A stretch of 64,000 bases of DNA from Candidatus Chisholmbacteria bacterium (GTDB lineage Bacteria; Patescibacteriota; Microgenomatia; UBA1400; Chisholmbacteraceae), in NCBI GenBank assembly GCA_963704905.1, contig CAVPHZ010000001.1, forward strand, positions 1,089 through 65,088, read 5' to 3'. Positions 6,629-60,017 of this stretch are shown in pieces. Within the stretch, counting starts at the first letter, position 1. Each line of letters opens with the position of its first letter. A program made the translations under genes and the position numbers. The notes under the pieces were generated by a model that was given only the letters and a program-made list of their open reading frames with translations, had not been told where the DNA came from and ran no database searches.

Positions 6629-7405
6629 TCATCTTTTAGGAGGCAGAGGAATCAACAAACTCGTTTTTCTTCTGTACTCTTGATACTTCACATTTTCAAC
6701 ATATTTCTGATCATACTTTTTTTCCAGTAGAGGAATTCCACTTACAAACATTAAAATATACGTGATAAAGATTGGACCGATTATTGTCAACCAAGCCAAT
6801 CCTTGTAATGTTGGCATGACAATAAGGTAAATACCCCACCAAACAAGCATCTCCCCAAAGTAATTCGGATGTCTCGAATATTTCCATAACCCCGATTGAA
6901 TCCACATATCTTTGTTCTTTGGATTGCTTTTGAATTTAAACTTCTGTCCGTCAGCAATTGATTCAAGTAATAATCCCATTAACCACACAATCATTCCCAT
7001 AATCATAATGGAACTGACTGGGATGCTATCAGATTGAGTGAGTATCAATATTGCAGGTAGCATGATTATCCAGACTGCTATCCCTTGAAATACCCAAAAC
7101 TGTAAGAAAGACAACAAATTTTCCCTCTTGTCGTCAAAACGACTATCCTTTTTAATTCTTAAAATCCGTATAACAAGGTAGGATATCAATCTTATTGCCC
7201 ATATGATTATCATCAATGTAATGAGTATTTGAATTGGAAAATAGGTTTGGTTGGTAAAGTTCAAAAAAAGTGCAAGTATAATGAAAGTTATGCCATAGGT
7301 AAAATCGGTAAACTTATCAGTTTTTAGAGCAAAGGCAACAATAAAAAACAAAAGGTTAATGCCCAAACTCAAGGCAAATGTAAGACTATATGGATTCATG
7401 AACAT
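6629..7405 (-). CDS. DUF1295 family membrane protein (steroid 5-alpha-reductase / ICMT-like fold)
   Basis: Multi-TM protein with the motif WKYSRHPNYFGEMLVWWG typical of the DUF1295 / methyltransferase-like family. Confidence 0.6.
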   Translation of the reverse strand: MFMNPYSLTFALSLGINLLFFIVAFALKTDKFTDFTYGITFIILALFLNFTNQTYFPIQILITLMIIIWAIRLISYLVIRILRIKKDSRFDDKRENLLSFLQFWVFQGIAVWIIMLPAILILTQSDSIPVSSIMIMGMIVWLMGLLLESIADGQKFKFKSNPKNKDMWIQSGLWKYSRHPNYFGEMLVWWGIYLIVMPTLQGLAWLTIIGPIFITYILMFVSGIPLLEKKYDQKYVENVKYQEYRRKTSLLIPLPPKR

Positions 7406-7439
7406 GGCTATACTTTAACAAAAACCTAGGGAAAATAAT

Positions 7440-7871
7440 ATGCGACTATGGAGTCTACATCCTAAATATCTTGATACTCAAGGCCTAGTTGCTGTATGGA
7501 GAGAAGGATTGCTGGCAAAAAAGGTGTTGGAAAGAAAAACTAAAGGTTATACTAAACATCCTCAACTGATTAGATTTAAAAAGCATCCATTCCCTTTAAA
7601 AGCCGTTGATCATTACTTGATTTATATATTCTATGAATCTGAAAATAGAGGTTTTCATTTTAGGCGGAGTAAAGTTGAAAAAGCACAAGATAAAATTAAT
7701 ACAATAACAGTTACTTCAGGTCAAATTGAATACGAGTTTAATCATTTAAAGAAGAAGTTAAGTCAAAGAAACCCTATTTTGTATAAAAATCTACTTATGA
7801 CTAAAAATATCGACACCCATCCTCTATTTGAGGTTATTAAGGGCAATGTCGAAACGTGGGAAAAAATATAA
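7440..7871 (+). CDS. pyrimidine dimer DNA glycosylase (endonuclease V / Pyr_excise-like)
   Basis: N-terminus MRLWSLHPKYLDTQGLVAVWREGLLAKKVL resembles T4 endoV-type proteins (RINLxxxxELxDQHLxAExREL). Confidence 0.6.
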   Translation: MRLWSLHPKYLDTQGLVAVWREGLLAKKVLERKTKGYTKHPQLIRFKKHPFPLKAVDHYLIYIFYESENRGFHFRRSKVEKAQDKINTITVTSGQIEYEFNHLKKKLSQRNPILYKNLLMTKNIDTHPLFEVIKGNVETWEKI

Positions 7872-7913
7872 ATGCTAAAGATATTATTAGAAGTAGTTTG
7901 AAATAAAGTAATA

Positions 7914-7943
7914 GCTTGAGTGAAACAATCATTGCAAGCTTTT
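7914..7943 (+). terminator. candidate rho-independent terminator (AGCTTG...CAAGCT plus TTT)
   Basis: 6-bp stem with 15-nt loop and a T tract, 40 nt after the glycosylase stop. Confidence 0.3.
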
Positions 7944-7968
7944 AATTATTACGAATATTTCTATAACT

Positions 7969-8000
7969 AAAGTGTTCGATATTATTAAACGTAGGGTCAC
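7969..8000. repeat. conserved intergenic motif, copy C (AAAGTGTTCGATATTATTAAACGTAGGGTCAC)
   Basis: Diverged copy with 5 substitutions, located between convergent genes. Confidence 0.7.
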
Positions 8001-8054
8001 TTGTTAATTTTGTGAAGTTCAGTGAATGGTGTTCAAGGTTATTCATAGGTTAGA

Positions 8055-8603
8055 TTATGACTTTAACTTTGTGGAATATTTTTCTTTTAAAGCTTTGAGT
8101 TTTGGCGAAATGACGAACGTGCAGTACGCAGCAGACGAATTATTAATATAGTAATTCTGGTGATACTCCTCCGCTTTAAAAAACTCTGTTAAGGGTACTA
8201 TTTGGGTGACAATTTTATCCTTATATTCTCCGCTCGCGCTCAACTCTTTTAGCAGCTTATTTGCAATATCTTTCTGCTCGTCATTAATATAGAGAATTAT
8301 TGATCGATATTGTGTTCCAGTATCAGATCCTTGCCTGTTTATAGTGGTGGGATCATGTGAATGCCAGAATATATCCAGAAGATCTCTGTAGGAGATCATT
8401 TGGGGATCAAATTCTATACGAACCGTCTCTGCATGTCCGGTGTCCGTATTGCTAACTTGATCATAGGTCGGATTGTTTACTGACCCACCAGCATAACCGG
8501 GAGTCACTGATATGACACCTTTTATCTGCTGGAAGATTGCTTCTGTGCACCAAAAACAGCCTCCTCCAAATACAGCAATTTGTTTATTTTTCATCCTTAC
8601 CAA
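8055..8603 (-). CDS. msrA: peptide methionine (S)-sulfoxide reductase MsrA
   Basis: Catalytic motif GGGCFWCTEAIF and GYAGG. Overlaps msrB by 20 nt. Confidence 0.9.
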   Translation of the reverse strand: MVRMKNKQIAVFGGGCFWCTEAIFQQIKGVISVTPGYAGGSVNNPTYDQVSNTDTGHAETVRIEFDPQMISYRDLLDIFWHSHDPTTINRQGSDTGTQYRSIILYINDEQKDIANKLLKELSASGEYKDKIVTQIVPLTEFFKAEEYHQNYYINNSSAAYCTFVISPKLKALKEKYSTKLKS

Positions 8604-8952
8604 TAAACTTCAGAGACATTGAATTGACGCAGTGACGAGTATTCTTGGGTGTATCACCTTCACCTTCAAAAACATGACCTAAGTGCGCACCGCATGAATT
8701 ACAGGTAATCTCAGTTCTGCGACCATCAGCATCTAGAGTTCGTTTTACTGCATCGTCTATTTCTTGATCAAAGCTAGGCCATCCGCAGTGTGCGTCAAAT
8801 TTATCTGAAGAATTATATAGTGGAGCATCACATTGCTTGCATACATAGACCCCATCCTCAAAAAATTCGTCGTACTTTCCCGTGAAGGGGGCTTCCGTGC
8901 CCTTGTCGATAATCACTCTTTTTTCTTCTTCAGTTAATTGATTTACTTTCAT
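8584..8952 (-). CDS. msrB: peptide methionine (R)-sulfoxide reductase MsrB
   Basis: SelR fold motifs CKQCDAPLY...HCGWPSF and CNSCGAHLGHVF (two CxxC zinc sites, catalytic Cys). Confidence 0.9.
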   Translation of the reverse strand: MKVNQLTEEEKRVIIDKGTEAPFTGKYDEFFEDGVYVCKQCDAPLYNSSDKFDAHCGWPSFDQEIDDAVKRTLDADGRRTEITCNSCGAHLGHVFEGEGDTPKNTRHCVNSMSLKFIGKDEK

Positions 8953-8954
8953 GT

Positions 8955-10682
8955 TTATCCAAATGTAAAAGCAAATAGTTCTAGATTGTTATCTTGGAAG
9001 ATTAGCTTGAGAGTATGTTTTCCAGGACTATCTAAACGGATGAGTTTGTAGAGCCTGTCCTTATCCACAGTTATAATTCCATCATCTACGTCTGCCCCCT
9101 TGTTGGTGGCGTCAACCGTCTGGCCATCAAGTGTTACTTCAATCCTACCGGCGCCGTTTTTCGACCTCATGACAAGAAATACTTCACTGGCTTCAAAATT
9201 TAAAATCAATGATCCACCTTGAGTTGGCTTTGCATATTCTTCTCCGATTTCCCAAGTGCTGGTATACGCAAAGCGATTGGGAAGTAAAGTATTGGGAGCT
9301 GAATATTCTTGTGGTGCGTTTTGGATGATGCGCTCTGGTGATTGAAAGTATTCGATTCTACCATAGCCCAAATAGAGCTCCGGTGTACGAGCTGTAATCG
9401 TATATTCAGGATTATCAATAGTTGTTTGGTTAACTTCAGTACCTGCTTCTTTGAGTAATGTTTGTATCACTTTTTCTGTTTCGTCGTAATCACCTTCACC
9501 ATAGTGGTGGTAACGAATATTCCCCTTCGCATCGATAAGATATTTTGCAGGCCAGTAATGATTGTCGTATGCTCGCCAAGTTGCGTAGTCATTATCCTGC
9601 ATGATTGGGTACGTTAACTCAAAGTCGTTGACGGCATCTTTTAGATTGTTAATGTCTTTTTCAAATTCAAACTCAGGTGTATGGACACCAATAATTACAA
9701 GTCCTTCATCACCATACTTTTCATTCCAACTCTTAAGGTAAGGTAGTGTTCGGATGCAATTAATGCAGGTGTAGGTCCAAAAGTCGATCAGGACAACTTT
9801 TCCCCGCAATTGCTCAAGTGTGAGCGGATCGCTATTTACCCATTCTCCACCAGGTATGAGATTTGGCGCAGTTCCTTCCTCTTCGAGCATTTCAAACATT
9901 GGTCTTCCCTTCTCTTCTGATTTTCCATTTGCATCTCCACGAAGACTTTGGAGTTCTTTTTGCACTGCTTGGTTTTCTTCCAACTTTGTCAGGCCTGTTC
10001 CATAGCTTGGGAAAGCATCTAGCACGAAGGTCTGAATTTTTCGATCGTAGTTAAAGTGTATGCCAATTGCTGTCAGGATCATCAGCATTCCAAAGGCTTT
10101 TTGAATTTTGCCAGTGTTGCTCACAAGCGTAGGTACTCGTGAGAGGAGTCCCTTTCCACCATAGAGAATTGCGAGCATCGGTAGTGCTGTGCCTACTGAA
10201 TACGCAAGCGTAATCATGAAGCTGGCTTGGGTAACCTCTCCGGTTAAAGCAAGTGAAATTACCGAGGCAAGAATTGGCCCAACACATGGGGTCCATATGA
10301 GACCAATACTTATACCGACAAGAAGACCGCCAAAAAAACCTTGGCCGCTTGTTGATGTTGGAACGATACCTGATAATTTTGAAAAGAGTTTTTCCATCTC
10401 GAGCTGAAATCGAGGTACGAGCAGGCTTACACCAAACAACCCCACAACGAGCACGGAGAGCACGCGTAAACTGTCAGCAGGTATACCAATTGCTTTCACA
10501 ATTGCAGTGAGAAATAAGGTGAAAAAGGTGAAGCTGATAATAAATCCCGTGACTACACCAAAAGGCCGTCTTTTACCACCTGAAACAGAACTCGATAACA
10601 CTATCGGGAGAATAGGTAAGATGCAAGGAGAAAGTATAGTTACAACTCCTGCCAAAAATGCAAAGCTAATGAGAACAATCAT
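8955..10682 (-). CDS. CcdA/DsbD-type thiol-disulfide transporter fused to a TlpA-like thioredoxin domain and a C-terminal beta-rich domain
   Basis: N-terminal 6-8 TM region with two Cys (LSPCILPIL, WTPCVGPIL) as in the DsbD / cytochrome c biogenesis family. Then WTYTCINC (CxxC) in a thioredoxin fold. A ~150-aa C-terminal domain is of unknown type. Confidence 0.8.
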   Translation of the reverse strand: MIVLISFAFLAGVVTILSPCILPILPIVLSSSVSGGKRRPFGVVTGFIISFTFFTLFLTAIVKAIGIPADSLRVLSVLVVGLFGVSLLVPRFQLEMEKLFSKLSGIVPTSTSGQGFFGGLLVGISIGLIWTPCVGPILASVISLALTGEVTQASFMITLAYSVGTALPMLAILYGGKGLLSRVPTLVSNTGKIQKAFGMLMILTAIGIHFNYDRKIQTFVLDAFPSYGTGLTKLEENQAVQKELQSLRGDANGKSEEKGRPMFEMLEEEGTAPNLIPGGEWVNSDPLTLEQLRGKVVLIDFWTYTCINCIRTLPYLKSWNEKYGDEGLVIIGVHTPEFEFEKDINNLKDAVNDFELTYPIMQDNDYATWRAYDNHYWPAKYLIDAKGNIRYHHYGEGDYDETEKVIQTLLKEAGTEVNQTTIDNPEYTITARTPELYLGYGRIEYFQSPERIIQNAPQEYSAPNTLLPNRFAYTSTWEIGEEYAKPTQGGSLILNFEASEVFLVMRSKNGAGRIEVTLDGQTVDATNKGADVDDGIITVDKDRLYKLIRLDSPGKHTLKLIFQDNNLELFAFTFG

Positions 10683-21556: not shown

Positions 21557-21988
21557 ATGGGATCGTTACTGCTTTTTCTCCAAGTGGGTTTGATATTCTT
21601 CCAATTTTTGTTTAGCGATCTGATTTCCGTGTTTCTTTTTCCTCATTTGTTACTACTTTTCATAGTTGGAATTGGAGTAGCGCTTTGGGGCTTTTTCAGC
21701 CTCGGCCGCTCATATTCCCCACTTCCGAAACCAAAAGAGGATAATCAGCTTTCACAGCGAGGTGTGTATCGGTTTATTCGGCATCCTATTTATACTGGTC
21801 TTTTTTTGATTTGTCTGTCTTTCTTACTATCAAGGATACATGCGCTTTCGATCATCACCTTTGGGTTAGTTGTTTATATCACAAATAAAAAGGCCAATCT
21901 TGAAGAAGATTTATTAATCAAAAAACATCCAACATATAAAACATATAGAAAGTCGGTTCGAAAATTCTTTCCTTTTGATCTCAGTTAA
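21557..21988 (+). CDS. ICMT/PEMT-family membrane methyltransferase
   Basis: RGVYRFIRHPIYTGLFLICLS motif (RHPxY-x-G) after 3 TM helices. Confidence 0.65.
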   Translation: MGSLLLFLQVGLIFFQFLFSDLISVFLFPHLLLLFIVGIGVALWGFFSLGRSYSPLPKPKEDNQLSQRGVYRFIRHPIYTGLFLICLSFLLSRIHALSIITFGLVVYITNKKANLEEDLLIKKHPTYKTYRKSVRKFFPFDLS

Positions 21989-48996: not shown

Positions 48997-49806
48997 TTAG
49001 TTCAAGAGCTGATCAATAGCACTTTGAAAAACAGTAAATGGCTGGGCTCCGATGACTAATTGTCCATCGATATTTCCATCACCTGAGGATTTCCCTATTA
49101 CGAAGCTGGGTGTTCCTGAAGCTCCGGCAGCCTGTGCGTCTGCTTTGTCTTTTTTCACTTCTTCACCCTGTGCATTATCTTGAAGACAAGATGTGAAGCT
49201 ACTGGTATTCAAGCCAACATCGCTAGCTATTGATTGAATATCATCATCATTTAAACCATTTCCGTTAGAAATGGTTCTGTTAAATATCTCGTCGTGGTAT
49301 TCGAAGTATTTACTATCTCCACCCTGTTCTCGTGCACAATTGGCAGCAATTGCTTCCTTGGTTGCCATTGGATCATGAAAAGGAAGCGGAAGATCACGAT
49401 AGACTATTTTCACTTTCCCTGTATCAACATATTCTTTCTTTATCTGAGGTAGTGTTTCATCATAATGGCGCTTGCAGAATGGACATTCGTAGTCAGAAAA
49501 TTCAATGATTGTCACTGGAGCATTTGCATCACCAATTACCGGATCATCATCAACTGAAACAATAGAATTCGATGGTGGAGGTTGGCCTGGATCTGTTCCT
49601 TGGTTCGGTTGTGTTCCTCCTTGTGGCACTCCATCTTGTTGTGATCCAGTTAGTTGCGTTTTACTACCTTTTAGGAGTTCTAGTTGGCCCTGAAATCTTC
49701 CGATCAAAAATGCAGCAACTATCAATAGCAGAATCAAGAGAGGGGTAGCTGTTTTTTTCGATGGAACTGGGACTGAAATTGTTTTTTTCTCCATAACTCT
49801 TCGCAC
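48997..49806 (-). CDS. DsbA-family thiol:disulfide oxidoreductase, membrane-anchored
   Basis: N-terminal TM, Pro/Gln-rich linker, then IIEFSDYECPFCKRHY (CPFC active site). Confidence 0.8.
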   Translation of the reverse strand: MRRVMEKKTISVPVPSKKTATPLLILLLIVAAFLIGRFQGQLELLKGSKTQLTGSQQDGVPQGGTQPNQGTDPGQPPPSNSIVSVDDDPVIGDANAPVTIIEFSDYECPFCKRHYDETLPQIKKEYVDTGKVKIVYRDLPLPFHDPMATKEAIAANCAREQGGDSKYFEYHDEIFNRTISNGNGLNDDDIQSIASDVGLNTSSFTSCLQDNAQGEEVKKDKADAQAAGASGTPSFVIGKSSGDGNIDGQLVIGAQPFTVFQSAIDQLLN

Positions 49807-49857
49807 CTTTCTACTACTCAGTGTAGTAGTTACTCGTTTACCGTGTCAAGACCTAAA

Positions 49858-50811
49858 TTACTTAAAATGAGAAAATGATGTGGCTTCTGAGAAGAATTTT
49901 CTCGAGTGCTGCTGTTCACAAGCAGTTTGATTTTCGAGTACTGTTTGACTTTCCGCCTTGCTCTCGGTTGGCAATAAAAAAAGTGCAAGAAACAGAAGAG
50001 TTAAAAACAACAATGATTTTGATACGGTTTTCGGTACAGTAAAAAAAGATTCTCGCTTGCCGTACTCATTAAGTTGAAGTATTCGCAATTTCAACGATTG
50101 GTTTTGAAATGATGGTGTGTATGGAAGAGCTGGCATAGAAACAATCTTTGCAAGAGCTGATTTTAAAAATCGATTTGTACTTTGAGTTTGTAAGACATAT
50201 TTATCAGCCTGCAGTTCTATATGCGTATGATAGAGAGAGACAAGTTCTCGAACTATCGGTACAAAGAAGAATACGTCTTTAATAATTTGGCTGAAGAATA
50301 ATTTCAGTGAGTGTCTTTGCTTGATGTGTGCGAGCTCATGAAGAATCACTGCTTCTAGCTCTTGGTCGTTGATCGTTTTGAGCAGGTGTTCTGAAAGAAG
50401 TATCGTTTTCTTGAAAAATCCGAGACTTAGTGCCAAGGGATTATTATTACTAATTATTCTTATATTTATCTTCTCAAATTCCATTTTGTTCACAATGTTA
50501 GCTATACGCTTATATCCAGACTTCGATTTTGCTTCTTGAAAGGACTGGATTCTGCTTATCATCTTCACGAGTGACAAACTGGTGCTAATCACTACTACCA
50601 GAACCATGAAGGTTAGGAGACTCGCTATAAATATCCCAATTATATGCGTCGGGGAAGAAAGAAAAGCACCCAGCGATTGCTGACAGTATTCTATATAGTG
50701 AACCACTGTCGATTGTACATATTTATTCACTAACAGTAATCCAGCGAACCCAATGGAACCGGCTATGAGAAGTAGGGAATAAAATATTTGATCATCTTTC
50801 TTTAACTTCAT
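49858..50811 (-). CDS. BlaR1-like M56 peptidase with a minimal extracytoplasmic tail
   Basis: 4 TM helices, then HELAHIKQRH (HExxH) in the M56 position, a terminal TM helix and a ~35-aa tail. No penicillin-binding sensor domain. Confidence 0.75.
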   Translation of the reverse strand: MKLKKDDQIFYSLLLIAGSIGFAGLLLVNKYVQSTVVHYIEYCQQSLGAFLSSPTHIIGIFIASLLTFMVLVVVISTSLSLVKMISRIQSFQEAKSKSGYKRIANIVNKMEFEKINIRIISNNNPLALSLGFFKKTILLSEHLLKTINDQELEAVILHELAHIKQRHSLKLFFSQIIKDVFFFVPIVRELVSLYHTHIELQADKYVLQTQSTNRFLKSALAKIVSMPALPYTPSFQNQSLKLRILQLNEYGKRESFFTVPKTVSKSLLFLTLLFLALFLLPTESKAESQTVLENQTACEQQHSRKFFSEATSFSHFK

Positions 50812-51208
50812 TGAGCAATTTGAGAATATTCTCCCTTTCTTCCCGTGGTAATTTACTTATGCCACGAGCAAACGCAGCAGAAGCATCAGTACCATACACC
50901 TGCGATAATGACCTCACTGTGCTGGTAATAATTCGCTGGACAACTTGTGATTTACTCAGCTTTGGACTGTAGACAAACGCCTTTCCAACTTTTTTTCTGG
51001 ATACGATTTTTTTAGAATGCAACCTATCCAGAATCGTCATCACAGTTGTATAAGCGATCTTTTTCTTCGCTTTTAAACAACGATGAACGTCGTTTACCGT
51101 TGTCTCATCATGATTCCAAAGACAATCCATGATTTTTCTTTCCAGTGGTCCTAGGGTGGTGCTTTGGGTCATACTACAGATTGTAGTAAATAATTGAACC
51201 AATCGCAA
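50792..51208 (-). CDS. BlaI/MecI/CopY-family winged-helix repressor
   Basis: LGPLERKIMDCLWNHDETTVNDVHRCLKAKKKIAYTTVMTILDRLHSKKIVSRKK is the Penicillinase_R fold. No C-terminal Cys cluster. The true start is probably the internal Met (MTQSTTL...). Confidence 0.8.
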   Translation of the reverse strand: MRLVQLFTTICSMTQSTTLGPLERKIMDCLWNHDETTVNDVHRCLKAKKKIAYTTVMTILDRLHSKKIVSRKKVGKAFVYSPKLSKSQVVQRIITSTVRSLSQVYGTDASAAFARGISKLPREERENILKLLNEVKER

Positions 51209-52069
51209 TTATTTTTGATTCTTGAGTGCTGATTTTAGGAGCCTGTAAAAGAGATAACTTCCAACGACCACAAAGAGAATATTTATTCCAGGAATATTTT
51301 TAGTAACATTTGTGACAGATATGGCTGTATTTTGAATGGTCTGAATAACTGCAGACTCGTCAGACGGCATCCCAAGCATTCCGACCGAAGAAAGAATTAT
51401 CGTCAAGGTTCCCGTCACGGTGAATATTGCAGCGGCAATGAGGTTTGAGACGAAAACAGGATACTCTTTTTTTCCTAAGCGAATTATTCCAAGTTTCCGT
51501 TTCAGTAGTGGTTTTTCTAAAATGTTTCGTTTTTCAATGAACAGCGAGGCAATATAGAGTGGAGCAACCATGCCAAATACATAACTTAATCCGACTCCAA
51601 GCGCTTGGAATGTTGATGAACTCAGAGTGCTTAGAGCTATGACACCAATAAGAACCGGAGCACAACAGGCAGAAGTGATGCCAGAGAAAACACCTAATGT
51701 AAATGTGGAAAAGATGTCATTTTTTTGTTTTCCACTACTCAATGCAAAATTCGGCATTGGTAGTTTTATCCCCAGAAGTGAAAAAATTGCTACAAGCAGC
51801 ATAAAAAACCCTCCTACAATGTAGGTTTGGTCATGGAGCTGGAAAAAGAGTGTTGATAGCGCTTTGGCTCCTAAGACGACAGGTAGCATGACTACAAATA
51901 TTCCCAACGAATATACAATTGTCATTAAGAGAATTCTTTTTTTCTCTTTGAAAATATTTGCAAAGTACGCTGGAAGAAGGTATGAAATACAGCAAGGCGC
52001 AAACAGCGCAACCATCCCAGCTGCAAAGGCAGCAATAAGAGAAACCTGGTAGAGCGCTGATTGTCCCAT
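51209..52069 (-). CDS. CcdA/DsbD_2-like cytochrome c biogenesis-type membrane protein
   Basis: LFAPCCISYLLP in TM1 and GITSACCAPVLIG later are paired-Cys motifs, in a multi-TM protein. Confidence 0.65.
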   Translation of the reverse strand: MGQSALYQVSLIAAFAAGMVALFAPCCISYLLPAYFANIFKEKKRILLMTIVYSLGIFVVMLPVVLGAKALSTLFFQLHDQTYIVGGFFMLLVAIFSLLGIKLPMPNFALSSGKQKNDIFSTFTLGVFSGITSACCAPVLIGVIALSTLSSSTFQALGVGLSYVFGMVAPLYIASLFIEKRNILEKPLLKRKLGIIRLGKKEYPVFVSNLIAAAIFTVTGTLTIILSSVGMLGMPSDESAVIQTIQNTAISVTNVTKNIPGINILFVVVGSYLFYRLLKSALKNQK

Positions 52070-52072
52070 AAT

Positions 52073-54244
52073 TTAGATTTCCACTTTGAGATTTGCTTTG
52101 CGCAGAGTCATTGCGTTGATGACAACAATAACTGAGGAGAGACTCATCAGGAGAGCTCCAAATGCTGGTGTGAGTTTAAAACCAAGCGGAATAAAGAGAC
52201 CAGCTGCAGCAGGTATAGCAACGATGTTGTACCCTAGTGCCCACCAAAGATTTTGAACCATTTTGTTATACACTTTTCTTGAAAGAACGATTAAGCGGAC
52301 AATATGCTGAGGATTACTCTGTGTGAGTACAATATCACCAGCTTCGACGGCTACATCTGTTCCTGTACCAATTGCTATACCTACATCGGCTTGTGTTAAT
52401 GCCGGAGCGTCATTGACCCCATCACCCGCCATAATAACAACATTTCCTTCATCCTGTAGCTTCTTAAGATATTTGTATTTATCCTCCGGTAAAACTTCGG
52501 CAAATACTTTGTCTATCCCTAACTCTCTTGCGACCGGTTCCGCAGCTGCCTTCGTATCGCCTGTCAACATTGCAACTTTCACTCCCAGTTTGTGAAGTTC
52601 TTCTACTGCTTTTTTTGACTCTTCTTTAATCTGGTCACTAAGGGAAAAAATACCAATGATTTCCTTATTACTTGCAACAAACACAGGAGTTTTTCCTTGG
52701 TTGGAAATATCAGTAAGGACTGACTCTGCTTTTTCATTCCATACATTCTTCTCTTCCATAAGACGCTTGTTACCAAGAAAGTATGACTCCCCTCCTATAT
52801 TCGCTTGCATACCTCTTCCTGAAAGATTTTTTACATTCTTTGCTTCTGGTATCTTTACTTTCTGTTTATTTACATACTCCACAATCGCCATTCCAATGAC
52901 ATGAGAAGAATGTTGTTCAATTGCCCCTGCTACGGTGAGAAGGTTCTCTGTATTCCGTTGAAGTACTTCTACACCTGTAACACCAAAGTTTCCTTCAGTT
53001 AACGTTCCAGTCTTATCAAAAACCACATAGTCCGCTTTTTTAACTATTTCAATTTTTCCCATATCTTTCATGAAGACACCGTTTTTTACGGCTAAACGAG
53101 TAGCTATAGTTGAAACTGTAGGTATTGCTAACCCTAAGGCATGTGGACAGGCAATAACGAGCACTGTGATAGCGAGCGTTATTGCAAAGACAAACGATTG
53201 ACCGACAATCAAAGACCATACTAAGAGCGTGATCATTGAAACCGTGAGTGCTGAGAGTGTTAACCACTTCGAAGCACGGTCAGCCAATTTTTGAGCAGAC
53301 GGTTTGGTTTTCTGAGCTTTTGAAATAAGATCTTGAATTTGGCCGATCGTCGATGACTCTCCAACGCGTAATAGCTTTACCTCAACTGAACCGTCGATGC
53401 TAATAGCTCCAGCAACAACCTCTGCGCCTTTTCCTTTTTCAACTGGTTTGGATTCTCCGCTGAGGTGGGCTTCATTGAAATTAGCACTCCCCTTGATAAT
53501 CTCTCCATCGGCTGGAACTTTTTCTCCAGGTTTGACAAGTACAATGTCTCCTTCTTTAAGTCTATCTAGGGGAACATCTTTAACTTTGCCATTTTTTTTG
53601 AGATGTGCTTCTTTTGGTAGAAGTTTTGCTACTTCCTGAAGCGCATCACCAGCTGCCGTTGATGATTTTGCCTCGAGAAAGTGACCAAAGAGTAGAACCC
53701 AAATTAGCGTTGCTATTTCCAGATAAAACTCGACCTGTAATGCAGGAACAAATGTTGAAGCGACTGAAAATAGATAACCAGCGCCGACACCTAATGAGAC
53801 TAAAGTCATCATTCCAAATTGCTTGGCTTTAATTTCATGCTTTGCATGCTCAAAGAACACAAGTGAAAAGTAAAAGATGATGGTTGCGATGATGAACTCT
53901 AAGTATGGTCTAAGAAAGAAGTCGGGAATTCCGAGAAATTGAACTGCTGGTTTGCTGAATAATGCAAGAGGAACAAGTAGAACTGTTACAATAAAAAATC
54001 TTCCCAGAAATTCACTCGCTGCTCCTTCACCTACCATCATTGACTGATGTTCATGCCCTTCGTGATTTCCATGTTGATGATCCTCGTGATGTTTATGTTC
54101 ACCTTCACCATTTTTTTCCACCAAGTCCATGCCGCATTTTGAGCAAGACCCTGGTTTATTGCTCCTGACCTTAGAATGCATAGGACAATAGTATGATCCT
54201 TCTCCTTCGTCATGATGATCTTGGTGACCTTCACAACAAGACAT
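52073..54244 (-). CDS. copB: P1B-type heavy-metal ATPase of the CopB class (CPH motif) with a His-rich N-terminus
   Basis: DKTGTLT, GDGVNDAPAL, TGDT and the transmembrane CPH (IACPHALGL). N-terminus HQDHHDEGEGSYYCPMHS...CSKCGM...HKHHEDHQHGNHEGHEHQ. Start set at the ATG preceded by the RBS AGGAGAA (MSCCEG...). The track start at 54340 would overlap the upstream gene. Confidence 0.9.
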   Translation of the reverse strand: MSCCEGHQDHHDEGEGSYYCPMHSKVRSNKPGSCSKCGMDLVEKNGEGEHKHHEDHQHGNHEGHEHQSMMVGEGAASEFLGRFFIVTVLLVPLALFSKPAVQFLGIPDFFLRPYLEFIIATIIFYFSLVFFEHAKHEIKAKQFGMMTLVSLGVGAGYLFSVASTFVPALQVEFYLEIATLIWVLLFGHFLEAKSSTAAGDALQEVAKLLPKEAHLKKNGKVKDVPLDRLKEGDIVLVKPGEKVPADGEIIKGSANFNEAHLSGESKPVEKGKGAEVVAGAISIDGSVEVKLLRVGESSTIGQIQDLISKAQKTKPSAQKLADRASKWLTLSALTVSMITLLVWSLIVGQSFVFAITLAITVLVIACPHALGLAIPTVSTIATRLAVKNGVFMKDMGKIEIVKKADYVVFDKTGTLTEGNFGVTGVEVLQRNTENLLTVAGAIEQHSSHVIGMAIVEYVNKQKVKIPEAKNVKNLSGRGMQANIGGESYFLGNKRLMEEKNVWNEKAESVLTDISNQGKTPVFVASNKEIIGIFSLSDQIKEESKKAVEELHKLGVKVAMLTGDTKAAAEPVARELGIDKVFAEVLPEDKYKYLKKLQDEGNVVIMAGDGVNDAPALTQADVGIAIGTGTDVAVEAGDIVLTQSNPQHIVRLIVLSRKVYNKMVQNLWWALGYNIVAIPAAAGLFIPLGFKLTPAFGALLMSLSSVIVVINAMTLRKANLKVEI

Positions 54245-54878: not shown

Positions 54879-55103
54879 CTAGCTTTTTATAACATTGGCG
54901 GTAATGGTTACTTCTAGACTAGGATAATTGATATTATCTGTTTCAATGTAAATGGTGCGGGTAAGTTTTCCGAGATCAGTATCATCTTTGTGAACTGCTG
55001 GATCAAAACTCACTTTTACTTTTGTGGACTCATATGGCGCGAGGGAATTCTTTTCAACTTCAGCGCTTGTACATCCGCAAGATGTTGAGACTCTAGTGAC
55101 CAT
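54879..55103 (-). CDS. DUF1573-family small protein (C-G-C motif)
   Basis: VSTSCGCTSAEVEKN...VSFDPAVH...IYIETDNINYPSLEVTITANVI parallels the 57411-57905 paralog. Confidence 0.5.
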   Translation of the reverse strand: MVTRVSTSCGCTSAEVEKNSLAPYESTKVKVSFDPAVHKDDTDLGKLTRTIYIETDNINYPSLEVTITANVIKS

Positions 55104-55149
55104 TATTGGCTGAAGGGAGTAAAATTAGTGAGTGTAAATTCTGTGTTTT

Positions 55150-55611
55150 CTACATCTCCGTAAATGACTGTTCCCAGCTCTTGATTTTCGGTGTCAAGCT
55201 AACCTCAACGTTCACTTCCCTGTAGGCATTAATTCCACCGACAAGATCGCTAACATTTGTATATCCCAGTTCCACAAGTTCTTTGCTGGCTGAGTCACTC
55301 ATTGAACCTGAGCGGCAGTAGACGAAAAGTGGCGTATTTTTGTCTTGGGGAAGTTGTGAAAGGTTCTGTGAGATTTGATTATAGGGAATGAACGCATCAG
55401 TTCCTGAAATGTGCTGTTGTTCTGGAATATGTACGTCAAGGATAAATGTATCTTTGTTGTTGATAATGTCCTGTGCTTCGAGTGCACTTACTTTTTTAAC
55501 TCCTGACTCACTTACCATGGTTTGTCCCTCTTCTCCTTTTGATTCATTTGGTATCTGCGAGTTACGTGTAGATAAATATCCACAATCCAACAAGTACAAG
55601 TATCGCAACAA
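55150..55611 (-). CDS. rhodanese-domain sulfurtransferase
   Basis: FVYCRSGSMSDSASKELVELGYTNV has the active-site Cys loop of the rhodanese fold. Confidence 0.75.
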   Translation of the reverse strand: MLRYLYLLDCGYLSTRNSQIPNESKGEEGQTMVSESGVKKVSALEAQDIINNKDTFILDVHIPEQQHISGTDAFIPYNQISQNLSQLPQDKNTPLFVYCRSGSMSDSASKELVELGYTNVSDLVGGINAYREVNVEVSLTPKIKSWEQSFTEM

Positions 55612-55744: not shown

Positions 55745-56265
55745 ATCAGGGTGTACTGTTGGATCATAGAAAACTCTAAGGATTGCAGTGTCTCCCGGGC
55801 GGATAGCTCACTTTCCAGTTTTTAGGATTTTCCTGTCCGTGCCCCTCCATTGTAAATGTTGGTCCGACTTCCCCGTCATAGACGAGCCGCTACGGATGTG
55901 CAGCCGCACGATGAGCTCAGTTTATGAATTTCTAAATCACTTTCTCCAAGATTTTTAAATTCAAAGTCGGTTGATACAGTTCCTTTTGCTTGACTTACTT
56001 TTCCTAGATCCTGCTTAACTTCACGAATCTCAATCTTCGGTGCGTCAGCTGGGGCAAGCTCTGCCAATTTTTGTTTTAACGCATCTTGGTCCTCCATGTT
56101 TGTTAATCTATCGATACCAAATTGTTTCGCCGTTGCCAGTATCACTTCATCTTTTGAAGATCCGCCTAATATTTGCTGGTCGATGTAATCAATCATTTGA
56201 ACCATCGCTCCGCAACATGGCTTTTCTTTATTTAAAGGTTGTCCGCAACAGGGACAAGTGAACAT
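55745..56265 (-). pseudogene. DUF1573-like paralog with an N-terminal Cys-rich segment; C-terminal half disrupted
   Basis: ORF 55876-56265 ends abruptly right after SSSCGCTSVAARL. In shifted frames the sequence continues with ...GHGQENPKNWKVSYPPG and ...ETLQSLEFSMIQQYTLI, resembling the paralog C-terminus (LEFSLSANVIN) but about 30 aa shorter. Confidence 0.4.
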
Positions 56266-56437: not shown

Positions 56438-57403
56438 TTAGGCTCCACATCCTCCTCCACCTTGTGCTGGCTGTGGAAGGCTTTTAATTTTTTGTCTAGT
56501 TGTCTGATACCCTTGAGCACTCGAATACTGCGCACTCAGTGCAAGTTTCGGGTCCACTTGGTTCCACTCCTGACCTTGTTCCTTAAAATAGGTCGCAAGC
56601 TCAATGTAAGTTTGCGGAAACCAGAGTGAATTCACTTTAAGTGCAACATCGTACATTTCCTGTTCACTCACTCCATTGGCAGCCATTAGCTCCAAAAGAC
56701 CTAACATTGCCATTCCGTGGTTACAGTCAGGAAAATGGGTTGAGTTCCCACAACATGGTCTGTAAATATTTTGAGATACAGTGTCGACTAATGCTTGCTG
56801 TTGGCCGGTCAGAGTAACGTACGGATGAGTAGAGTAGTGCTCCATTGCTGGTGTTTTACTCAGTGACCAACCACCGGTTGCGGCAAACTTGCTGGCATCA
56901 CCGCCGAATTGTGCATCCGTCATTTCACCGTTTTCTAAAATGTCATTTTTGTTAGCTAACCCAAATGCCCAGAGCATATCCAGAAGAAAACGGCTGTTTT
57001 GTTGGTTCAAGACAACTGTATCGTTGAACTCTCCCGTAAGCATCTGTTCGTCGTTTTCTTGGAGTCCACCTTGAAACAATGTCTTGAGCTTTTGTTCGTC
57101 AATCACCCCATCATCTACCATGCGTTTTCCTAAATCACCCCAGGTAATGGGGAGCTCTACCCCCTCAGCTGGGATAACGATTTTTTGTTGTTCTGATACT
57201 TCCACTTGACTAGTTGGTTGGTTAGCGTTGCTTTGCGTGGAAGCTTTCTGAAAAGCTGGATTTCTTACCTTGAATTTAGGTTCAATCTTCACGGTAAATA
57301 GCTGAAGGAAAACAAGTAACCCAAAGAGAATAAGCGCCGAAGATTTCCAAAATTTTTCTGGATCCTTCATGAGATTAGGTTTTTTAATAATCTGTTTGGG
57401 CAT
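56438..57403 (-). CDS. secreted/membrane-anchored hypothetical protein with a Cys/His motif
   Basis: N-terminal TM helix, 321 aa, RPCCGNSTHFPDCNHGM motif and a C-terminal GGGGCGA. Confidence 0.45.
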   Translation of the reverse strand: MPKQIIKKPNLMKDPEKFWKSSALILFGLLVFLQLFTVKIEPKFKVRNPAFQKASTQSNANQPTSQVEVSEQQKIVIPAEGVELPITWGDLGKRMVDDGVIDEQKLKTLFQGGLQENDEQMLTGEFNDTVVLNQQNSRFLLDMLWAFGLANKNDILENGEMTDAQFGGDASKFAATGGWSLSKTPAMEHYSTHPYVTLTGQQQALVDTVSQNIYRPCCGNSTHFPDCNHGMAMLGLLELMAANGVSEQEMYDVALKVNSLWFPQTYIELATYFKEQGQEWNQVDPKLALSAQYSSAQGYQTTRQKIKSLPQPAQGGGGCGA

Positions 57404-57410
57404 ATGCCTC

Positions 57411-57905
57411 CTAGTTGATTACATTGGCTGATAATGAGAATTCTAGATTGGAATTATTTTGGTCATTGGTTTCTACTGACACAATTCTAGTTATCTGTCC
57501 TGTTCCTGATGGACCATGAAAAGCAGGGTCGAAGGTTACGACAAGTTCGGCTTCCTGACCAGGTTCAAGTTCACCGAGCCAAGATGAATTTGAATGCATT
57601 CCGAAGTATGGACTTTGTTGTCCATTGATGATGACCTTCGCTTCAGTGCACATACATGACGTTTTAATATTGGCTAACTGAAGTGGGCTGGATCCTGAAT
57701 TTTTTATCATGAAGCTCTTATGTACGACCCCGCCAGTTAAGGTAATTGTTCCCCAATCGTGGGTTGATTCTTGTATTTCTGCCTGAGCTTGTGCAGTCGT
57801 TTCAATTCGTGGTGGACTTGGCGCTCTTGAAGCAAGGACTACGCCACCTATAAGTAATAGTACTGTAGCTCCTACCACCAGAGAAACAATTTTTGAATTA
57901 CTCAA
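57411..57905 (-). CDS. DUF1573-family protein, membrane-anchored (C-x-C variant SCMCT)
   Basis: N-terminal TM, then IKTSCMCTEAKV..VVTFDPAFHGPSGTGQITRIVSVETNDQ..LEFSLSANVIN. Confidence 0.5.
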   Translation of the reverse strand: MSNSKIVSLVVGATVLLLIGGVVLASRAPSPPRIETTAQAQAEIQESTHDWGTITLTGGVVHKSFMIKNSGSSPLQLANIKTSCMCTEAKVIINGQQSPYFGMHSNSSWLGELEPGQEAELVVTFDPAFHGPSGTGQITRIVSVETNDQNNSNLEFSLSANVIN

Positions 57906-58402
57906 TTTTTTCTCCTCTTATTTATGTACTTCTTTCTATCTTTTATAAACTTTTCTTTACATCCAGAAGCACAGAAATAATACGCTTCCTTGTTTAGATT
58001 TACCGCTACTGCGGCGGTTTTTGGACTCAGTCTCATGCCACAAACAGGGTCGATCACAACTGGAACCAGATCTTTCATTCTCCATTTAAGTTCCTCTGAA
58101 AGAATGACATCATCTTTTTGTTGATCGAGAAGCATTTCGCGAAATAAATCTGAGGCTTTGACAATGTTTGGATGAGAAAGTTTGTAGTAGATCGCCGTGC
58201 CGTTCCTCCGAGTTTCTACTACACCATGTTCTCGAAGAACTGACAGATGTTGAGACAGATTCGCCTGGGGAAGTCCAAGCATATCTTGCATTTCTGAAAC
58301 TGAGAGCTCTTGATCGCGAAGAAGGTGGATTATTTCAACACGTTTTTGACTGGCAAGGGCTTTATAGAGCATCTCGTGAAGTTTAAATACTTTGTTATAC
58401 AT
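57902..58402 (-). CDS. ArsR-family HTH regulator fused to a C-terminal TRASH/YHS metal-binding domain
   Basis: ArsR HTH (LASQKRVEIIHLLRDQELSVSEMQDMLGLPQANLSQHLSVLREHGVV), then DPVCGMRL...YYFCASGCKEKF, the TRASH/YHS Cys pattern. Confidence 0.75.
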   Translation of the reverse strand: MYNKVFKLHEMLYKALASQKRVEIIHLLRDQELSVSEMQDMLGLPQANLSQHLSVLREHGVVETRRNGTAIYYKLSHPNIVKASDLFREMLLDQQKDDVILSEELKWRMKDLVPVVIDPVCGMRLSPKTAAVAVNLNKEAYYFCASGCKEKFIKDRKKYINKRRKN

Positions 58403-58503
58403 GTTTATATTCGCATATACGAATATTTAAGAGTATATTTATTCAAGATTAATCTGTCAAGCAGTAATTGGAGTAAATATTTGTAGAATAAACCGGTCTA
58501 GGC

Positions 58504-59776: not shown

Positions 59777-60017
59777 TAAATGCTTAGTGAAAGTAAAAAA
59801 TATTAGCTCTCCCTCCCAGGACGAACTCAAGATATGGAACCTTTTTTAAAGTGAATTCGTATATTGATTTTCTTCTGGCTTCTTCGTAATATGTCTCTAA
59901 GAAGTTGTGTTTAAGGAATCTGGTGAAATTCCAGAACTGTGCCGCAACTGTAATCCGACTTAAAGCTCGGTAAGTCAGAAAACTAACAACTTCTAGTATC
60001 CCGAGCAGGAGAAATTC

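Follow-up and report, generated by a model that had tools for sequence, protein, structure and literature searches.

A sensor-less BlaI/M56 pair beside a copper ATPase cluster in a Candidatus Chisholmbacteria genome, with predicted operators at its own promoter and at a DsbA-type gene

In the BlaI-BlaR1 and MecI-MecR1 systems of S. aureus and B. licheniformis, a winged-helix repressor is paired with an M56 membrane protease bearing a C-terminal sensor of about 250 amino acids (aa). Among approximately 15,000 M56 proteins, only about 6% carry such a transpeptidase sensor, while 96% are encoded near a blaI gene, and a short or unstructured C-terminus is the commonest architecture. About 94% of BlaR-like proteins thus have no beta-lactam sensor, and their signals are largely unknown; in the literature that we examined, a signal has been identified only for PetRP. 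The described sensor-less systems are CenIR of Clostridioides difficile, BlaIR of M. tuberculosis and M. abscessus, and the copper-responsive PetRP of Synechocystis sp. PCC 6803, and small autoregulated regulons with dyads spaced by 5 nucleotides (nt) are typical of the family. Here we analyze a further pair of this kind in a 64,000-nt stretch (hereafter the window) of contig CAVPHZ010000001.1 from a Candidatus Chisholmbacteria bacterium, where the first-pass annotation had correctly located a repressor gene and an M56 gene on the minus strand between copB/ccdA-like genes and dsbA. The pair is probably an autoregulated regulated-proteolysis module of the BlaI/BlaR type (BlaIR, PetRP-like) whose direct output at this locus is dsbA and not the copper ATPase. 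The features that this reading draws upon are the following.

50792-51172, minus strand: blaI-like repressor gene, 126 aa from the ATG at 51172 (Pfam PF03965, PDB 2G9W).
49858-50811, minus strand: gene for a sensor-less M56 (BlaR1-like) membrane zinc protease, 317 aa (Pfam PF05569, AlphaFold2, Foldseek).
48997-49794, minus strand: dsbA, the predicted effector gene, for a membrane-anchored DsbA/MdbA/BdbD-type thiol-disulfide oxidoreductase, 265 aa, with a CPFC active site.
51173-51187, no strand: predicted operator O1, perfect dyad ACTACAATCTGTAGT, ending 1 nt before the blaI ATG (position weight matrix (PWM) window 51168-51192, 23.8 bits).
49813-49827, no strand: predicted operator O2, dyad ACTACACTGAGTAGT in minus-strand reading (PWM window 49808-49832, 27.2 bits).
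51180-51208, minus strand: predicted blaI-M56 promoter, TTGCGA-17-TACAAT, from the promoter scan, with its -10 inside O1.
49820-49849, minus strand: predicted dsbA promoter, TTGACA-18-TACACT, 10 of 12 matches in the promoter scan, with its -10 inside O2.

The exact dyad ACTAC-N5-GTAGT occurs only twice in the 64 kb, at O1 before blaI and at O2 before dsbA, compared to an estimated 0.08 copies expected from base composition; with one mismatch allowed, six dyads were observed versus 0.82 in shuffled sequences. O2 extends to a longer inverted repeat, CTACTAC-N5-GTAGTAG. Both dyads cover a -10 hexamer, since an independent promoter scan placed the -10 hexamers inside O1 and O2. O1 lies in the 36-nt gap between the stop codon of the ccdA-like gene and the blaI ATG; the -35 of the blaI-M56 promoter begins right after that stop codon and its -10 ends 7 nt ahead of the ATG, which implies a leaderless or nearly leaderless transcript. 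The dsbA promoter is followed by an AAAGGTG ribosome-binding site and then by the ATG at 49794. We predict from these patterns that the repressor binds O1 and O2 as operators and thereby regulates its own gene. The third-best PWM site of the window (21647-21671, 15.4 bits, one core mismatch) falls inside an unrelated open reading frame (ORF) at 21557-21988 and was judged a chance match, and the next one, of 8.2 bits at 58213, falls inside the arsR ORF.

The operator was further assessed in 86 loci collected by contig look-ups and by a scan of species-representative genomes. They derive mostly from Candidate Phyla Radiation (CPR)/Patescibacteria (Roizman-, Davies-, and Levybacteria, WWE3, Saccharibacteria), Chloroflexota, and DPANN archaea, with a few Bacillales, and in 79 of them blaI is located upstream of the M56 gene. 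For the operator statistics we used the 80 non-duplicate loci (1.10 Mb), which were chosen only for encoding an M56 homolog. The exact core was found 78 times, compared to 0.92 ± 0.89 in shuffles (an approximately 85-fold enrichment), with at least one copy in 44 loci and at least two copies in 24. Typically, one dyad abuts the blaI start codon, the ATG being 8-13 nt from the dyad centre, and the others lie 3' of the M56 gene. The locus of the closest ortholog (L001) retains the blaI-M56-dsbA order together with both dyads: an identical dyad abuts the blaI ATG and an equivalent one precedes the DsbA ortholog. The same triad with dyads is also present in cultured Lederbergia lenta NBRC 16444 (Bacillales; locus L059, with blaI at 7239-7652, the M56 gene at 7659-8507, and the dsbA-like gene at 8541-9212), and Sporosarcina soli is another cultivable carrier.

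The dyads that follow the M56 gene in relatives precede DsbA-like genes in about 20 loci. Other genes behind such dyads encode DsbB, DsbD_2-Cupredoxin_1 fusions with or without HMA, a GILT/thioredoxin-like protein, DUF3105 and DUF3179 proteins, and BNR/YCF48-like propellers, while lgt-like and YceI-like targets and a cupredoxin in L041 were assigned by reading the sequences and not by the scan. Neighbouring genes in relatives encode CsoR, Csp, DUF305, and SCO1-like proteins; this gene content and that of the predicted regulon fit both copper and thiol stress. At the window locus, the dsbA product matched the Pfam families Thioredoxin_4 (E 1.6e-30) and DSBA (E 3.5e-21), and its PDB relatives were DsbA 4PWP (E 1e-20), BdbD 3EU3, and ScsC proteins (about 1e-8). 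By these matches, the predicted effector is closest to the DsbA, MdbA, and BdbD oxidases and more distant from the copper-tolerance ScsC proteins.

Two membrane proteins without a Pfam family recur behind the dyads of relatives. One is a single-pass protein of about 90 aa with the C-terminus (V)PxSMVGGC, encoded directly 3' of the M56 gene in many CPR loci (L012, L020, L023, L031, L040, L049, and L054, e.g., L054 1888-2163). The other, of about 150 aa with the motif MISCCAHYLTN (CCAH), starts an operon behind a second dyad together with a CcdA-like gene (L030, L031, L049, L054, L063, L067, and L071, e.g., L054 4425-6860), which apparently makes the CcdA-like gene a member of the BlaI regulon in these lineages. 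No homologs of the SMVGGC, CCAH, DsbB, DsbD_2-cupredoxin, DUF3105, or BNR proteins were found in the window. In the window (51170-51190) and in many other loci, the blaI start codon stands 7-9 nt after a dyad-embedded -10 (TACAAT or TATAAT), a spacing suggestive of leaderless blaI-M56 mRNAs in CPR bacteria; in the Bacillales, a GTGAGGTG ribosome-binding site follows the dyad instead. A Chloroflexi-type contig carries three separate BlaI-M56 pairs within 10 kb (L005 9552-19278, same in L006), which adjoin genes for Csp (copper storage), DUF305, and an AhpC/Redoxin/SCO1-like protein and have no ACTAC-N5-GTAGT next to them.

The blaI ORF reaches further upstream (50792-51208, to a TTG at 51208). 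The true start is almost certainly the ATG at 51172, because the public record holds the 126-aa product and the L001 ortholog (64% identical) uses the same ATG, directly 3' of the same dyad. The repressor is a full-length match to the Pfam family Penicillinase_R: the alignment spans profile positions 1-114 of 115 and scores 94 bits (E 9.8e-27; cut-off 22.6 bits). Its nearest solved relative is M. tuberculosis BlaI (Rv1846c; PDB 2G9W, E 3.6e-14, residues 2-122), followed by BlaI and MecI of S. aureus (1SD4, 1OKR). The repressor shares with CopY/CopR of Firmicutes the DNA-binding domain family and the neighbourhood of a copper P-type ATPase. However, the C-terminal CxCx4CxC (or CxC) site that defines CopY/TcrY proteins is absent: there is no Cys beyond residue 33 of 126, so that the C-terminal half is Cys-free. 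The same holds for 76 of the 77 repressor relatives, none of which has a CopY-type Cys metal motif. The CopY/TcrY model TIGR02698 scored 52.2 bits versus a cut-off of 121.95 and aligned only with the DNA-binding half (residues 23-97). In further contrast to CopY/CopR, no TACAnnTGTA box precedes the ATPase, and loss of repression would come from proteolysis instead of bound Cu(I). The cleavage site of S. aureus BlaI has Phe102 at P1'; its counterpart in the alignment is Phe101 (codon 50870-50872), a residue shared by 70 of 77 relatives, and we therefore expect this repressor to be inactivated by proteolysis.

The M56 gene overlaps the 3' end of blaI by 20 nt. Its product matched Pfam Peptidase_M56 (PF05569; E 1.9e-15, 57.3 bits, cut-off 31) and contains the catalytic motif H158ELAH162 (codons 50326-50340). 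H158, E159, H162, E199, and D203 are invariant (48/48) in the alignment of 48 non-identical M56 proteins that adjoin this operator type, and R243, the equivalent of BlaR1 Arg294, is present in all 44 ungapped sequences. The protein has no C-terminal penicillin-binding (transpeptidase-like) sensor domain, since the NCBIfam BlaR1/MecR1 models (NF000326, NF033108, NF033109) scored 35-43 bits versus cut-offs of 400-1200. An AlphaFold2 model built from 69 sequences (mean local confidence pLDDT 82.8, global score pTM 0.76) has two N-terminal membrane helices with an outer loop between them, a protease core of high confidence, and a third transmembrane helix (TM3) at 261-279; after TM3 come one helix of low confidence at 284-306 and a disordered end, and no hidden sensor fold was found by this model in the 38-aa outer tail. 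The top Foldseek matches of the model were the cryo-electron microscopy structures of S. aureus BlaR1 (8EXS, 8EXP, and 8EXR; E 1e-6, probability 1.0), followed by ZMPSTE24/Ste24. Thus, the first-pass description of a BlaI/MecI-like and not CopY-like repressor with an HExxH-bearing M56 partner, whose short extracytoplasmic tail replaces a beta-lactam sensor, was borne out, and the alignment of Phe101 supports the predicted inactivation by proteolysis.

With BlaI-BlaR1 and MecI-MecR1 the pair shares the repressor family, the P1' Phe, the gluzincin core (HExxH, ExxxD, and the Arg294 equivalent), an outer loop directly preceding the helix that connects to the protease domain, the gene order, and predicted autoregulation. 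It differs from them by the 38-aa tail, by one N-terminal membrane helix fewer, by a dyad (TACA-N3-TGTA) that does not have the classical spacing, and by its target, dsbA instead of a beta-lactamase or PBP2a gene. The BlaR1 autocleavage loop has Ser283-Phe284 upstream of Arg294; Ser234-Phe235 of the M56 protein, 8 residues before R243, falls in a column that is loosely hydrophobic (F 15, I 10, A 7, and L 5 of 48), and with conservation this weak we do not claim an autocleavage site. As in CenIR and the BlaR-like class without a transpeptidase domain, only a short or unstructured C-terminus follows the M56 domain, a short-tailed M56 protein is encoded directly after a blaI-like gene, and the main target, here a predicted one, lies just downstream. 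In contrast, the tail of CenR is longer (residues 334-460), and no Cys-based feature or Dsb link has been reported for CenIR. Sequence searches with the M56 protein returned an ortholog of 63% identity alongside numerous remoter homologs, about 290-360 aa in length, and a profile search gave at least 1316 matches at E <= 1e-5, by which measure short sensor-less M56 proteins are common. The M56 proteins of DPANN and other archaea (L055, L057, L074, L075, and L081) are about 250 aa long, stop right behind the protease core, and carry a Cys-rich outer loop (e.g., ACGAACMPC); these archaeal pairs have no bacterial-type dyad.

The outer tail of the M56 protein is not featureless, as it contains Cys298 (codon 49918-49920), which is kept in 38 of 48 relatives, where the usual tail motif is C-x4-6-C-x3-C. 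The outer loop (residues 30-56, NKYVQSTVVHYIEYCQQSLGAFLSSPTH) contains Cys43 (codon 50683-50685) and no Met. Cys43 is kept in 46 of 48 relatives, near the invariance of the catalytic residues, whereas the frequency of Cys in the protease core is approximately 1%. Because HMMER aligns residues 68 onward with BlaR1 residues 110 onward, the loop is placed as the positional equivalent of the outer loop EL1 of BlaR1 (residues 56-96). In BlaR1, EL1 docks into the sensor domain, and its displacement initiates signalling.

A close known likeness of the pair is PetR/PetP, which combines a BlaI/CopY-family factor with a sensor-less M48/M56 protease. Both systems have a repressor without the CopY Cys, a short protease without a penicillin-binding domain, overlapping genes, a conserved cleavage-site Phe, a dyad spaced by 5 nt (GAC-N5-GTC for PetRP and CTAC-N5-GTAG here, with other bases), proposed ligands in the outer loop before the protease domain, and a tiny regulon. 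On the other hand, the PetP loop has the conserved Met53 and Met58, whereas the loop described here has a near-invariant Cys and is accompanied by a Cys-bearing tail. The PetRP targets are petE, petJ, and two small genes, compared to a DsbA-type oxidoreductase in the window; moreover, PetR also activates, and copper dependence has been shown for PetRP but is only inferred here. With PetRP as a precedent, the first-pass suggestion of an envelope thiol or metal signal is plausible.

Based on these comparisons, we propose the following mechanism. A repressor dimer would bind the two 15-bp ACTAC-N5-GTAGT dyads, each over a -10 hexamer, as the sequences and their conservation suggest; at O1 it would block the leaderless blaI-M56 transcript and at O2 the dsbA transcript. 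As homology and the model show, the M56 protein sits in the membrane with its N-terminus inside, followed by TM1, the outer loop with Cys43, TM2, the cytoplasmic gluzincin domain (H158ExxH, E199xxxD203, R243), TM3, and the outer tail with Cys298. How the protease is activated is the least certain part: the outer Cys residues would undergo a chemical change that acts through TM2 and substitutes for the acylated sensor domain of BlaR1. The change could be either the bridging of thiolates by Cu(I) or another soft metal or an altered disulfide state, and the bridge could join loop and tail or, alternatively, both loops of a dimer. The outer Cys are proposed as the sensor because of the conservation of Cys43, its EL1-equivalent position, and the Met ligands of PetP in the same loop. 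By homology, the activated protease would then cut the repressor before Phe101, DNA binding would be lost, and dsbA and blaI-M56 would be induced. Such a switch would most likely tune an envelope thiol or copper defence rather than the pump. Tentatively, we extend this proposal to a subfamily of BlaR-like proteases that would be distinct and widespread, with members in CPR/Patescibacteria and some Bacillales. In it, the near-invariant Cys of the EL1-equivalent loop, usually together with the C-x4-6-C-x3-C tail, might sense Cu(I) or the envelope thiol state and feed back on the genes for DsbA, DsbB, and DsbD-cupredoxin proteins.

Several points weigh against the proposed dsbA output and Cys sensor. 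The operator assignment was made in silico, and the PWM was trained on the same loci that it was used to scan, although the count of exact cores against shuffles is independent of it. No terminator separates the ccdA-like gene from blaI, and read-through from the ATPase operon could couple both units. In L023, a weak site (18.1 bits, one core mismatch) precedes a 90-aa ORF that lies before the ATPase gene. PetR also activates from non-palindromic sites, which would be invisible to a dyad scan. The conservation of Cys in the M56 proteins is compatible with metal sensing, redox sensing, or a structural role. Finally, the Firmicute members L053 and L076 have the loop Cys but not the C-terminal Cys, and a loop-tail Cys bridge is therefore not universal.

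The strongest rival, though in our judgment an unlikely one, keeps the architecture and the regulon and assumes that the M56 protein answers a different signal at the envelope, be it damage to the cell wall or beta-lactams, unfolded exported proteins, or a partner protein, with the Cys residues being structural. A beta-lactam or cell-wall-damage response has been reported for the sensor-less BlaR of M. tuberculosis (Rv1845c), which has no beta-lactam-binding domain and whose cognate BlaI is the nearest solved relative of our repressor. Most sensor-less BlaR proteins have no known signal, CenIR answered none of the stresses tried, the M56 tail was modelled at low confidence, and some targets in relatives (the BNR/YCF48-like propellers, DUF3179, and, by sequence reading, the lgt-like and YceI-like proteins) have no obvious thiol or metal link. 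In contrast, the effector is of the DsbA type both here and in about 20 relatives, and the other targets include DsbB, DsbD_2-cupredoxin-HMA, and the cupredoxin read from the L041 sequence. The CsoR, Csp, DUF305, and SCO1-like neighbours and a loop Cys almost as conserved as the catalytic residues also argue for a thiol or metal cue. No beta-lactamase or penicillin-binding protein gene adjoins the pair; the M. tuberculosis BlaI regulon, for comparison, reportedly includes blaC and the ATP synthase genes.

A second rival, that the pair regulates the copB-ccdA metal cluster and that proteolysis of the repressor derepresses the ATPase, was the expectation of the first-pass annotation, and we now consider it improbable. 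From 58402 down to 48997 every gene is read from the minus strand, in the order ArsR-YHS, DUF1573 proteins, an unknown 321-aa protein, a rhodanese, an unknown 199-aa protein, the P1B ATPase, the CcdA-like protein, the repressor, the M56 protease, and the DsbA-like protein. The features that bear on this rival are as follows.

51209-54244, minus strand: metal-pump context not under the operator, a CopB-like P1B ATPase and a CcdA-like protein, with no PWM site upstream.
57902-58460, minus strand: head of the metal cluster, where an ArsR/SmtB regulator ending in a YHS (TRASH-like) domain is encoded (Pfam HTH_5, YHS).

The collinearity of the genes is in favour of a common control, as blaI follows the ccdA-like gene after just 36 nt without an intervening terminator. 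In addition, of the 44 operator-type loci, 14 have a P1B ATPase within about 8 kb, 9 a CcdA-like gene, and 21 a DsbA homolog, while the chance of meeting an ATPase in a 16-kb interval of a genome of about 1 Mb is, by a rough estimate, only 2-3%. Daviesbacteria and WWE3 loci have a dyad at the head of a CcdA-containing operon, and one weak site stands ahead of the ATPase operon in L023. However, blaI lies downstream of the ATPase gene and has its own predicted promoter and operator. Of the BlaI-type dyads (TACA/TGTA) anticipated at the cluster, one does lie before blaI (51173-51187), but no PWM site above 8.2 bits was found near 58402 or 54861 or in the other gaps and promoters of the cluster, that is, upstream of the ATPase, 199-aa protein, rhodanese, DUF1573, or arsR genes. 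The classical CopY/BlaI box TACAnnTGTA was likewise absent upstream of these genes and from all cluster promoters; it has three matches in the window, the sole one in the cluster being at 52970 inside the ATPase ORF, and was rejected as an operator here. The expected association with P1B ATPases in relatives holds as a neighbourhood in those 14 loci, but L001 has no ATPase within 10.0 kb upstream and 3.9 kb downstream, and none of the 110 scored sites in relatives lies directly before a P1B ATPase homolog. Because of this combination, we regard the ATPase link as one of recurrent neighbourhood and shared theme, and the dsbA link as one of a conserved predicted operator.

The metal cluster also owns a metalloregulator. 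The arsR-YHS promoter (TTGACA-17-TATACT, 58432-58460) ranks first among the promoter matches of the region (11 of 12 matches), and it is followed at 58407-58426 by a perfect 7-6-7 palindrome, ATATTCG-N6-CGAATAT (ATATTCGCATATACGAATAT), which is unique in the window and is likely the autoregulatory operator of ArsR-YHS; no more copies were found in the internal gaps of the cluster. The ATPase cluster is thus probably regulated by ArsR-YHS rather than by the BlaI pair, and it appears to share the envelope metal/thiol theme under separate control.

The weakest rival, that the dyads are chance palindromes, RNA hairpins or terminators, or sites of another factor, and that the pair has no local target, is very improbable: although the assignment is computational and promoter-like matches in the region are not above chance overall, the exact core is enriched 85-fold in loci picked only for an M56 homolog, conservation across phyla concerns the half-site sequence and not a pairing kept up by compensatory changes, the dyads hold a fixed position over a -10 and beside blaI start codons, neither O1 nor O2 has a T-run or a terminator call in the scan (for which reason we rejected them as terminators), and autoregulation through N5-spaced dyads is the rule in the family.

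Sensor-less BlaIR systems themselves are already known, whereas the operator of this subfamily, its Dsb/copper-type regulon, and its conserved loop Cys were not found described, and our literature searches found no BlaIR system tied to DsbA or disulfide regulation. The subfamily thus gains a conserved operator, a predicted DsbA/thiol/copper envelope regulon, and a candidate sensing residue. If the Cys residues do act as the sensor, the module would provide a dedicated transcriptional control of extracytoplasmic oxidative folding or copper-thiol defence by regulated proteolysis, and a signal and an output for part of the large orphan BlaIR class. The results correct the expectation that a BlaI/CopY-like gene beside a copper ATPase regulates that ATPase, and they predict an envelope stress wiring in CPR bacteria, leaderless promoters included. 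CPR bacteria are not culturable alone; the presence of the triad in cultivable Bacillales makes the idea directly testable.

Several features of the surrounding genes deserve mention. The P1B ATPase (52073-54244 from its probable ATG) has a CPH motif, a His-rich N-terminus, and an HMBD domain (TIGR01525, 590 bits; PF19335). The CcdA-like membrane protein (51209-52069) is divergent, with no Pfam match and a match only to CcdA 5VKV (E 7.6e-7), and has paired Cys (APCC, SACCAP) compared to the usual single Cys per repeat in CcdA. Two DUF1573 genes are apparently frameshifted (at about 55870-55890 and 55100-55160), representing pseudogenes or assembly errors: in one, the domain begun in ORF 55876-56265 resumes in another frame past its stop codon, and in the other, the N-terminal half lies 3' of the rhodanese ORF in a frame that differs from that of ORF 54879-55103. 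No Rfam matches were obtained in the region; a cobalamin riboswitch aptamer (RF00174, 43 bits versus a gathering threshold of 31.5) is located just outside the cluster at 59888-60005 on the plus strand. The 321-aa Cys-rich protein (56438-57403, motif CCGNSTHFPDCNHG) counts as a conserved member of the neighbourhood: it has no Pfam family and recurs near BlaI-M56 pairs at E < 1e-10 in 7 of the 80 non-duplicate loci, with L007, L008, L015, L057, L066, L067, and L083 among the examples.

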